Assembly (NCBI GenBank): GCA_045651525.1
Contig: JAZRSO010000032.1
Coordinates: 4,523-68,522, forward strand
Length of the DNA stretch: 64,000 nt
Direction of reading: 5' to 3'
Source: Candidatus Enterousia sp.
GTDB taxonomy: Bacteria; Pseudomonadota; Alphaproteobacteria; Rs-D84
Made by a program: the position numbers and the translations under genes
The notes under the pieces: generated by a model
The model's input: only the letters and a program-made list of their open reading frames with translations
The model's database searches: none
What the model was told of the DNA's origin: nothing
Shown here: positions 28,944 to 64,000 of the stretch, piece by piece
Layout of the letters: every line of letters begins with the position of its first letter
Position numbering within the stretch: position 1 is the stretch's first letter

Positions 28944-30221
28944 TTAGTGTTTTCCACCGATTTTTGTGCGTCCACCCATCAGGGGTTGTAATGCCCGTGG
29001 AATATTTACAGAACCGTCTGGGTTTTGGTGGTTTTCAATAACTGGTACAATTGCGCGTGGCAGGGCAATGCCAGTGTTATTCAATGTTGCACAGAATTGC
29101 ATGCTGCCGTCTGTTGCACGATATCTGGTATTTGTTCTACGGGCTTGGAATTGACCAATTGACGAACATGAACCCAATTCACGATATGTGTTTTCGCTGG
29201 GGAACCAGGCTTCAACATCATGCATTTTAACTTTGTTAAATCCCATGTCGCCTGTGCATGCCATAATAACGCGGTATGGTAATTCCAAATCTTCCATAAT
29301 TTCACACAGGTTGTTTAACAAATGTTCGTGCATTTCATCGGATTGTTCAGGTGTGCAGTATATATATTGTTCAACCTTGTTAAATTGATGTATGCGAACA
29401 ATTCCGCGGGTGTCACGACCGGCGGCACCTGCTTCTTTGCGGAAACATGGTGAAAAACCAGCATATTTAATTGGCAGGTCTTTTTCATTTAACACTTCGT
29501 CACTGTGCAGTGAATTCAAGATAATTTCTGCTGTTCCTGCCAAACATCTGTCTGTGTCTGTCAGCATAAATACATCGTTCGCCATAACAGATGTGTCTGT
29601 TCCCTTGAAGTGGCCCGCGTTAAATATTGTTTGTGGTTTTGTTATCGCAGGACAGTTCACAAATGTAAAGCCCTTGGCAATCAGTTTTTGAATTACATAT
29701 GTTTGAATTGCCAGTTCCAGTTCTGCGGCTTCACCAAACAGGGCGTATGTGCGTGTGCCACAAACAGATGCGATTTTTTCTGGCCTGTACCAATCGTTCA
29801 TTTCCAGCAATTCCCATTGTGGACGTGGTGTAAAGTCAAATTCACGTGGTGTGCCGACACGACGAACTTCGACATTTTCAGAATCGTCGCGACCAAATGG
29901 TGTGTCTGCGCTGGGGATTTGTGGAACACAATGCAGTAATTCATCCAGTTGTTTTTCACGCTCTGCCAGTTCTGCCATATCATTTGCAATTTCCATATTT
30001 ATTTCTTTGGATTTTGCAATCAAAGACGCCTTGTCTGTGGCGGTTGGAATTTCACGTGTGATTTTATTTTTTTCTGCTGTCTTGCTTTGAGTAATAGTTT
30101 TCAATTCGCGAACGCGTGCGTCCAGTTTTATTATTTCATCTGTGTAATCTGTCATGCCTCTTAGTTCGAATGCTTTTTTAACCACGTCTGGGTTTTCGCG
30201 AATAAATTTCATATCCAACAT
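28944..30221 (-). CDS. serS: Serine--tRNA ligase
   Basis: N-terminal coiled-coil arm; class II motif 2 FRKEAGAAGRDTRGIVRIHQFNKVE. Confidence 0.95.
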   Translation of the reverse strand: MLDMKFIRENPDVVKKAFELRGMTDYTDEIIKLDARVRELKTITQSKTAEKNKITREIPTATDKASLIAKSKEINMEIANDMAELAEREKQLDELLHCVPQIPSADTPFGRDDSENVEVRRVGTPREFDFTPRPQWELLEMNDWYRPEKIASVCGTRTYALFGEAAELELAIQTYVIQKLIAKGFTFVNCPAITKPQTIFNAGHFKGTDTSVMANDVFMLTDTDRCLAGTAEIILNSLHSDEVLNEKDLPIKYAGFSPCFRKEAGAAGRDTRGIVRIHQFNKVEQYIYCTPEQSDEMHEHLLNNLCEIMEDLELPYRVIMACTGDMGFNKVKMHDVEAWFPSENTYRELGSCSSIGQFQARRTNTRYRATDGSMQFCATLNNTGIALPRAIVPVIENHQNPDGSVNIPRALQPLMGGRTKIGGKH

Positions 30222-30465
30222 TTTTTATTATCCTTTGTTCATAAATTTGGATTCTATTCTATAACGGTTTATAATATTTGTAAAGAAAATGCGTGATAAA
30301 TTATTCCCCCAACGGGGATGAGATAGAACTAAAAAATACAAAATTCAATGTCATATCACGATAAATTATAGAATAAATTTAACTGTTGTTCAACAGAATT
30401 ATTTTGGTTGTATGAAATACTTTATTTTGTTATATTTAGCGCAGTAAAAAAAGGAAGAAAAGCAA

Positions 30466-63450: not shown

Positions 63451-63596
63451 TCTGGAACCTTTTTTATTTAGTTTTTGTGTTTACATTATAAGACGATATT
63501 TGTGTTTGTCAAGATTTTGTTCAAAAAACGGCTAAATATAGAAAAGTCTAAAATTGATTGGTTTAAAATCTGTATAAATTAGATAAATAACAGTAA

Positions 63597-63619
63597 ATCC
63601 GCCGTATGGCGGGTTTTTT
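63597..63619 (+). terminator. Orphan plus-strand rho-independent terminator
   Basis: ATCCGCC-GTAT-GGCGGGT hairpin followed by T6; no annotated plus-strand gene ends here. Confidence 0.55.
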
Positions 63620-63620
63620 A

Positions 63621-63649
63621 TTGACTTTTATTATATATAAGAATAGAAT
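63621..63649 (+). promoter_or_regulatory. Candidate sigma70-type promoter for the thrS leader
   Basis: TTGACT (63621-63626), 17-nt spacer, TAGAAT (63644-63649). Confidence 0.4.
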
Positions 63650-63656
63650 AAGAGGC

Positions 63657-63713
63657 ATGAAATTATTTAATTTGTTCTTTACTACAACAACTACAACCCC
63701 TTTGGGGGTGTAA
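63657..63713 (+). promoter_or_regulatory. Thr-rich leader peptide ORF (MKLFNLFFTTTTTTPLGV) upstream of thrS
   Basis: Six consecutive Thr codons ACT ACA ACA ACT ACA ACC at 63681-63698. Hairpin ACAACCCC-TTT-GGGGGTGT overlaps the ORF end. Confidence 0.5.
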
Positions 63714-63791
63714 TTTCTATTGCGATAAATCGCACAAGTTTCTATAATTAATCTGTTTGAAAAAATAAATAAAAAGTAAAGGTATTTTATT

Positions 63792-64000
63792 ATGTCTTAT
63801 GATATTGAAATAATTCGTCATTCGTTGGCACACGTAATGGCGGCGGCAGTTAAAAAATTGCACCCTGATGTTAAATTCGCAGGGGGACCAGCAATTGAAA
63901 ACGGATTCTATTATGACTTTGATACAGAATATCGCTTTTCCGAAGATGATTTTGCAAAAATTGAAAAGGAAATGCGCGATTTAATCAAGTCTAATGGTCG
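63792..64000 (+). CDS. thrS: Threonine--tRNA ligase, 5' partial (runs off the window)
   Basis: [23 protein letters not shown]...[13 protein letters not shown] matches the ThrS second-additional-domain HxxxH region; AAAGG SD 9 nt upstream. Confidence 0.8.

Follow-up and report, generated by a model that had tools for sequence, protein, structure and literature searches.

A short open reading frame upstream of thrS, the gene for threonyl-tRNA synthetase (ThrRS), carries six Thr codons in a row, and the question raised by this locus is whether a ribosome reading those codons could tell the synthetase gene how much charged tRNA-Thr is at hand. Outside E. coli and Firmicutes, the means by which bacteria adjust each tRNA synthetase to need are poorly understood. 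The locus lies at the end of the window, meaning the whole stretch of 64,000 nucleotides that was analysed, in an assembly of 1.05 Mb, 39 contigs and 40% GC. The public records nearest to it, from ruminant, horse, bird and human gut, are labelled Candidatus Enterousia or uncultured Alphaproteobacteria. A sequence-only reading of the window had marked the leader ORF (63657-63713), its hairpin, a promoter (63621-63649) and the thrS ATG (63792), and all of these coordinates were found correct when the sequence was re-read. The features of the locus are as follows.

63595..63622, plus strand: strong intrinsic terminator, AAATCCGCC-GTAT-GGCGGGTTT and a T run; hairpin 63595-63616 with 9 pairs, T6 (consensus scan)
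63621..63649, plus strand: promoter P1, TTGACT-17-TAGAAT; 10/12 in the consensus scan
63657..63713, plus strand: leader ORF of 18 codons, MKLFNLFFTTTTTTPLGV* (asterisk, stop); ATG at 63657, stop codon TAA at 63711-63713
63681..63698, plus strand: six consecutive Thr codons, ACT ACA ACA ACT ACA ACC
63696..63709, plus strand: hairpin 1, ACCCC-TTTG-GGGGT; terminator-like in the consensus scan, followed by GTAATTTCTATT
63710..63722, plus strand: U-rich tail GTAATTTCTATTG; an imperfect U tract (GUAAUUUCUAUU, not a clean U run) that includes the leader stop codon
63720..63748, plus strand: promoter P2, TTGCGA-17-TATAAT, between leader and thrS; 10/12 in the consensus scan
63721..63734, plus strand: hairpin 2, TGCGA-TAAA-TCGCA, within the P2 -35/spacer; 8-10 nt past the leader stop
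63778..63782, plus strand: thrS Shine-Dalgarno sequence AAAGG, read from the sequence, with an A-rich stretch before it; AAGG/AGG is kept in the genus alignment
63792..64000, plus strand: 5' end of thrS, ATG at 63792, 78 nt past the leader stop; the gene extends beyond the window

The full thrS gene lies at G000 C32:68314-70047 on the contig (G000 being this genome) and encodes a ThrRS of 577 amino acids without the N-terminal TGS domain. The six-Thr run is real, and in the whole 1.05-Mb genome this is the sole short upstream ORF with at least 5 Thr per 6-residue window. Its sixth Thr codon, ACC, is also the start of the hairpin 1 stem.

Conservation was assessed on thrS loci taken from 40 related genomes and 80 public records, which after removal of duplicates gave 59 distinct versions of the leader before thrS, from Candidatus Enterousia, from sister families of its order and from two other alphaproteobacterial families. 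All Enterousia-type thrS genes but one (72-97% ThrRS identity) have the mini-ORF. Each of the 59 orthologues has an in-frame ATG, no earlier stop and a length of 15-25 codons, and in each (59/59) the 8 codons that precede Pro include 3-8 for Thr. These Thr codons differ from version to version at synonymous sites (ACA 148, ACT 77, ACG 20, ACC 20), so what is selected is Thr and not the nucleotides. Hairpin 1 has an unchanged stem in 22/22 genus sequences; over the 59 versions its loop is free, with 16 variants, and the ACCCC/GGGG(T) stem is constant. Synonymous sites in the paired arms (ACC, GGG) do not vary, ACC serves as the last Thr codon throughout, and the U-rich tail is near-invariant (T60, T62, T64 and T65 invariant; T59, A57, T55 and T53 at least 90% conserved in genus alignment A1). 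The position of the leader stop codon varies, either in the hairpin loop (TTTP*) or past the stem, so that the peptide has a variable C-terminus (PLGV*, PAGV*, TTTP*) over a constant RNA stem. In the sister families (L025, L026) and the other alphaproteobacterial families (L277, L278; small genomes), the ORF reads ..TTTTP*, with its stop in the hairpin loop and a TGS-less thrS downstream.

Because the codons vary synonymously while stem and tail are near-invariant and the loop is free, selection holds the Thr codons, the RNA stem and their adjacency. Judged from the alignments, what stays fixed is that the Thr run adjoins the hairpin 5' arm, and the leader is not a chance feature. It accompanies only those ThrRS genes that lack the TGS domain; where a relative's ThrRS has this domain (57-59% identity), the leader is missing and the 5' UTR is short and plain. 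In large GC-rich Alphaproteobacteria, matches to the Thr-run/hairpin pattern were rejected as chance, being situated within coding regions away from any thrS and about as frequent as matches to a reversed-pattern control.

The start of the leader was examined in the same set. A TAnnnT hexamer stands 5-10 nt before the leader ATG in 58/59 versions, with a mode of 7 nt, which is also the distance from the end of the P1 -10 box to the ATG here, and no conserved Shine-Dalgarno sequence precedes the leader ATG across the 59 versions. The leader ORF is therefore probably leaderless, with the P1 transcription start predicted at the leader ATG or 1 nt before it, in keeping with the leaderless or nearly leaderless start that the sequence-only reading had proposed. 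That reading had also discounted the AAGAGG beside the ATG as a Shine-Dalgarno sequence, and rightly so, since it is not conserved in relatives, where the 7-nt spacer varies freely.

The P1 -35 (TTGACT/CTTGAT) is kept in relatives, and the strong terminator at 63595..63622 adjoins it directly. The same arrangement recurs in at least nine relatives, where the terminator closes a co-directional upstream gene and has a T run that blends into the P1 -35. Here the terminator is an orphan, with no plus-strand gene upstream and a neighbour gene on the other strand. It is probably an insulator that makes leader transcripts start exactly at P1 and the leader AUG.

Cognate twins were sought by scanning this genome for short upstream ORFs. 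The same design was found before five further synthetase genes, serS, hisS, trpS, cysS and ileS, of which the first lies in the same window.

30301..30354, minus strand: serS leader MTLNFVFFSSISSPLGE*, with SSISS; 79 nt before the serS ATG at 30221
30306-30317, minus strand: serS hairpin CCCC-GTTG-GGGG, of the same CCCC..GGGG type as thrS hairpin 1
G000 C4:12104-12240 (L032/L135), plus strand: hisS leader MIKFLNIFSVFHHTQLGGY*, with HH; the hairpin begins at the second His codon
G000 C31:28303-28441 (L033/L075), plus strand: trpS leader MFNSKFIFSVNKCWRVAA*, with UGG in the 5' arm of the terminator hairpin, then T6
G000 C5:16465-16589 (L034/L165), plus strand: cysS leader MTIKYINFYCCC*, ending CCC*; hairpins downstream of the stop
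G000 C36:61079-61192 (L035/L105), plus strand: ileS leader MKTATIIIIK*; GC hairpin GGGCGT-ATGG-ACGCCC and T7, 30 nt before ileS

With thrS included, the codon run matches the downstream enzyme in 6/6 leaders, and a Phe-rich N-terminal motif is common to them. This match is the strongest argument that the ORFs are likely to be read by ribosomes and to report the supply of the cognate charged tRNA. The twins are conserved as well. The serS leader, whose Ser runs draw on UCN as well as AGY codons, is kept in two sister families and in 11 genomes of the genus; the hisS leader is kept in about 20/22, with CAC within a covarying stem; the trpS leader, with a single UGG codon or a pair in every case, is kept in about 10 genomes; and the ileS leader is kept in 23/24 genus loci. 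The cysS leader is present even where the CysRS downstream shares just 37% identity. Between this genome and most congeners, CysRS identity is a mere 35-38% (L165 vs L171, G016), so the gene type appears to have been replaced, and near-identical Cys leaders, MTIKYINFYCCC* and MTIRFINFYCCC*, stand before both types.

Some further features of these upstream regions were recorded. Between leader and gene, serS has a promoter-like TTTACA-17-TAGAAT, and in several relatives the promoter at this place contains a TTGCGA..TCGCA hairpin, as at thrS. At hisS, a conserved extended -10 (TGATATAAT) lies between leader and gene and is followed by a covarying hairpin at the predicted mRNA 5' end.

In this genome, no cognate leader was seen before valS, tyrS, argS, gltX, proS or glyS, and leuS has only an unconvincing ORF upstream. 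A strong intrinsic terminator stands 30-40 nt before the start codon of metS (G000 C36 minus strand, L036) and of the putative lysS (C15 minus strand, L037). No convincing cognate-codon ORF was found upstream of these two genes, only MRMQI* and MTHNIKRFN*, and their terminators may be attenuators of another type. The gene aspS (G000 C31 minus strand, L038; 438 aa, non-discriminating type) has about 200 nt of GC-rich, visibly structured 5' region, in which AAGGTGGCACCACG recalls a T-box sequence, with no Rfam match at E up to 0.1.

Known RNA families were searched for in the thrS leader. At gathering thresholds no Rfam family is found in the leader region. A T-box (RF00230) has no match in the leader region at E up to 10, in the window at the gathering threshold or in the genome at E up to 0.001, and Thr_leader (RF00506) is not among the leader-region matches at E up to 10. 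Weak Trp/Phe-leader matches upstream of thrS cover only the upstream terminator hairpin (63595..63622), and a T-box or other known family was rejected as an identity for the leader. An operator of the E. coli thrS type, with a 7-nt anticodon-like loop containing NGU next to the Shine-Dalgarno sequence, was likewise set aside; hairpins 1 and 2 have short loops of variable sequence and lie 45-95 nt from the thrS Shine-Dalgarno sequence.

T-boxes are unusual in Alphaproteobacteria. One relative from a sister family (G032, locus L275) has a T-box match at C19:3851-4083 (90.4 bits against a gathering score of 93, E 6e-21), directly upstream of a gene for a 403-aa class I synthetase (HIGH/KMSKS, TyrRS/TrpRS-like), and weaker matches occur in other relatives.

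The sequence-only reading suggested that the Thr codons sense Thr-tRNA for thrS and that a stalled ribosome could occlude the left arm of the hairpin. Conservation and the cognate twins at five other synthetase genes support both, and we are led to conclude that the leader is very probably a cis-acting Thr-tRNA sensor for thrS. Because the same design, with matching codons, stands before matching synthetase genes, we propose that the lineage runs parallel ribosome-read feedback loops for Thr, Ser, His, Trp, Cys and Ile where Firmicutes use T-boxes.

How the sensor would act is a separate matter, and here we lean, with less assurance, toward a specific model in which a ribosome that stalls within the Thr run would mask the 5' arm of a weak terminator and so let P1 transcription enter thrS. 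P1 RNA would start at or next to the AUG, and a 70S ribosome could load on the emerging 5' end. The only conserved content of the ORF it would then read is Thr codons, the last of them within the 5' arm of a GC hairpin that is followed by a U-rich tail. Under scarcity of Thr-tRNA, the ribosome would stall with a Thr codon in its A site, and from about the third Thr codon on its footprint would cover the ACCCC arm, so that hairpin 1 could not form. With hairpin 1 blocked, RNA polymerase would continue through P2 into thrS, on top of the basal output of P2. With ample Thr-tRNA, or with no ribosome on the leader, hairpin 1 would form and most P1 transcripts would end there. The sequences themselves show the elements, their conservation and nucleotide-level constraint, the agreement between codon run and synthetase, and the promoter geometry; the promoters as such, translation and the leaderless start of the ORF, the stalling, the termination at hairpin 1 and the sign of the response are all inferred from the sequence and its comparison with relatives.

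The canonical terminators of this genome have the form aaaaCCCC(C)-N3-4-GGGG(G)ttttt, and hairpin 1 resembles them with a weaker tail; it is the proposed attenuator hairpin, a candidate weak intrinsic terminator. Several points count against the model. A ribosome reaching the stop codon would cover hairpin 1 just as a stalled one does, so termination in the replete state would depend on the timing of ribosome and RNA polymerase. A ribosome held up as early as the first or second Thr codon, for its part, would leave hairpin 1 free. The U tract is imperfect, P2 is conserved, hairpin 2 has no role in the model, and there is no antiterminator: no antiterminator pairing was found at thrS, where RNAalifold on 22 thrS leaders finds hairpin 1 only. 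Attenuation of the textbook four-segment form is therefore not supported at thrS, and the sequence-only reading had overlooked both P2 (63720-63748) and the covarying hairpin 2 embedded in it, each of which complicates a simple model of attenuation.

The ileS leader comes closer to the textbook arrangement. There, RNAalifold predicts an antiterminator, UGCGCUUUG:CUGGGGCGCA, that overlaps the terminator 5' arm, with one pair compensated and with a 5' arm that begins about 8-13 nt past the leader stop. Constrained folding of single sequences had been tried for the same purpose and abandoned, because the terminator always won; it was the alignment-based fold that did show an antiterminator. A ribosome at the ileS leader stop codon would mask the antiterminator arm and the terminator would form, and a ribosome held on the Ile codons would leave the antiterminator free and give read-through. 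This logic would be that of classical attenuation, and it predicts the expected sign, with starvation leading to read-through. The thrS, serS and hisS design is simpler than that of ileS, with one hairpin overlapping the end of the ORF and no alternative pairing.

P2 seems to be a second source of thrS transcripts. Across the genus its TTG is invariant, its TATAAT is near-invariant and its spacing is 16-17 nt. Promoters equivalent to P2 stand between leader and gene at serS, hisS and cysS, and no P2-like promoter was found at trpS or ileS. In one record named as a Rickettsiales bacterium (L228, ThrRS 72% identical), the leader ORF has been lost and the TTGCGA..TCGC hairpin and TATAAT are retained. 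P2 is probably a real promoter and the basal one for thrS; it could, on this evidence, express thrS without the leader, and read-through from P1 would add to the basal P2 level.

Hairpin 2 is independent of hairpin 1. Its complementary 3' arm is present in 54/59 versions, its loop is 4-9 nt long, and its arms covary at three positions (TGCGA/TCGCA, TGCGG/CCGCG, TGCGC/GCGCG, TGCAC/GTGCG, TGTGC/GCACG). The covariation and the variable loop argue for a structure formed in the P1 RNA and against a protein operator, which is unlikely given arms that covary across a spacing of varying length. No partner structure for hairpin 2 was found. Promoters with a hairpin in the spacer were also considered as a genome-wide class and dropped, as the genome has only 5 pattern matches and only the one at thrS precedes a gene.

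The unlikely alternative that survives best is Rho-dependent attenuation of the tna type, in which the C-rich, G-free Thr run (ACUACAACAACUACAACCCC) would be a Rho loading site, blocked by a stalled ribosome and exposed by one that has finished and departed, with termination before thrS as the result. Rho is encoded in this genome and in 24/24 relatives tested, the Ser and His runs are likewise C-rich and G-poor, and both the weak U tract of hairpin 1 and the missing antiterminator at thrS fit this account. The Trp, Cys and Ile leaders, however, are not C-rich, the untranslated stretch is short and A/U-rich, and Rho would leave the invariant GC hairpin and the conserved U-rich tail unexplained.

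It is quite unlikely, though consistent with the placement of P2, that hairpin 1 pauses the P1 polymerase over the P2 -35, 11-16 nt downstream, without releasing it. The position of the ribosome would then set how long P2 is blocked, whether the polymerase resumes and whether hairpin 2 forms, the 5' arm of hairpin 2 being masked when a ribosome stands on the stop codon. P2 and hairpin 2 are both conserved, and their spacing from the leader stop stays at 8-10 nt, a distance that matches the one from stop to antiterminator at ileS, and the order of leader and P2 recurs at serS, hisS and cysS. Against this stand the locus that has hairpin 2 and P2 without a leader (L228) and the absence of a P2-like promoter at trpS and ileS; the account is an inference from geometry alone, and the sign of regulation that it would give is ambiguous.

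A wider form of this idea, which has a small chance of being right, is a lineage-wide 'ribulon' of at least six synthetase genes, each under a leaderless sensor ORF with cognate codons that precedes the promoter of the gene itself. Control would be by ribosome-gated promoter occlusion or read-through, with hairpin 2 involved, and the position of the ribosome would decide whether the P1 polymerase pauses over P2, terminates before it or reads through it. If true, this would be distinct both from classical attenuation and from Shine-Dalgarno sequestration.

Sequestration itself, in the form of translational attenuation of the mycobacterial poly-Cys type, is highly improbable here. In that scheme base pairing would tie the thrS Shine-Dalgarno sequence to the U-rich Phe codons just before the Thr run, and a stalled ribosome, by covering these codons, would free it. 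The mechanism is established in mycobacteria (bioRxiv 10.1101/834739), and RNAfold minimum-energy structures do pair UCUUUACU with AGUAAAGG at thrS and show similar pairing at trpS, hisS and serS. The duplex is weak, however (mean -6.9 kcal/mol), its positions are inconsistent over the 59 versions, and transcripts from P2 would not carry the leader. It is also no better than composition-matched shuffles (mean z -0.37; 9/59 below -1.64), and sequestration by the Phe-codon stretch was rejected as the main mechanism on this shuffle test over the 59 versions.

That the ORF makes a functional small hydrophobic peptide, or that P1 yields a free-standing small RNA, in either case with no part in thrS control, is barely credible: the shared Phe-rich N-terminal motif and the possibility that P2 frees thrS from P1 would allow it, but the amino-acid run matches the downstream synthetase in every leader, and it is the peptide C-terminus that varies and not the RNA stem.

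The reading preferred here, a ribosome-read Thr-tRNA sensor before thrS, corrects a view of thrS control as either the E. coli operator or the T-box only. A 1-Mb uncultured gut alphaproteobacterium appears to rely on a minimal module consisting of a promoter, a leaderless codon run and one hairpin, copied, each time with another codon run, before at least six synthetase genes. Since the amino acid that a copy reads is evident from its codon run, such modules are easy to annotate, and they may be useful as compact amino-acid-specific sensors. The thrS, serS and hisS versions raise the question of how a single hairpin tells a stalled ribosome from a passing one.

The sequence-only reading implied that synthetase control by such leaders lacked precedent, which is not the case. 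E. coli pheST is controlled via pheM by classical leader-peptide attenuation of a synthetase operon, a case cited in PMC1262725. The likeness to thrS here is a cognate-rich leader peptide, which in pheM-pheST controls transcription read-through into the operon. The E. coli pheM is led by a Shine-Dalgarno sequence and comes with a full terminator/antiterminator set, whereas the thrS element here is a single hairpin overlapping the end of the ORF.

Further precedents come from Streptomyces, where attenuators before trpS and leuS have been predicted (PMC1262725). For Streptomyces lividans, a dRNA-seq study reports leaderless leader peptides before thrS, alaS, trpS and leuS (thrL, alaL, trpL2 and leuL2), of which thrL reads MKRVRPFLETTPGFVPAR* and has one hairpin and no U run (PMC8079986). 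The S. lividans thrL-thrS pair is like the one here in having an 18-codon ORF, leaderless there and probably so here, directly before thrS, with Thr codons and then Pro-Gly (..ETTPGFV.. in S. lividans), one hairpin and no clear U tract, and several synthetase genes per genome carry cognate leaders in both. The hosts differ, being high-GC Actinobacteria there and a reduced-genome gut alphaproteobacterium here. S. lividans thrL has two Thr codons only, against 3-8 here, and no internal promoter P2 or second hairpin has been described for it.

In mycobacteria, leaderless poly-Cys ORFs act as attenuators (bioRxiv 10.1101/834739). They share with the present leaders a sensor ORF that here too is probably leaderless, the codon run and the occurrence at several loci, and there the read-out is by a stalled ribosome; here, unlike in mycobacteria, the test for Shine-Dalgarno sequestration failed and the targets are synthetase genes.

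The thrS T-box of Firmicutes (Bacillus) resembles the proposed system in outcome, with low charged tRNA-Thr giving higher thrS expression. A T-box reads uncharged tRNA directly, without a ribosome, and none is present here. The E. coli thrL-thrABC leader (RF00506) also has a Thr-codon run in its leader peptide, but it controls biosynthesis genes and not a synthetase, and it has Ile codons and a four-segment structure as well. Leader-peptide control of synthetase genes is already known, and the novelty here lies in the lineage, gut Alphaproteobacteria with reduced genomes, in the breadth across six synthetases and in the arrangement of P2 and hairpin 2.
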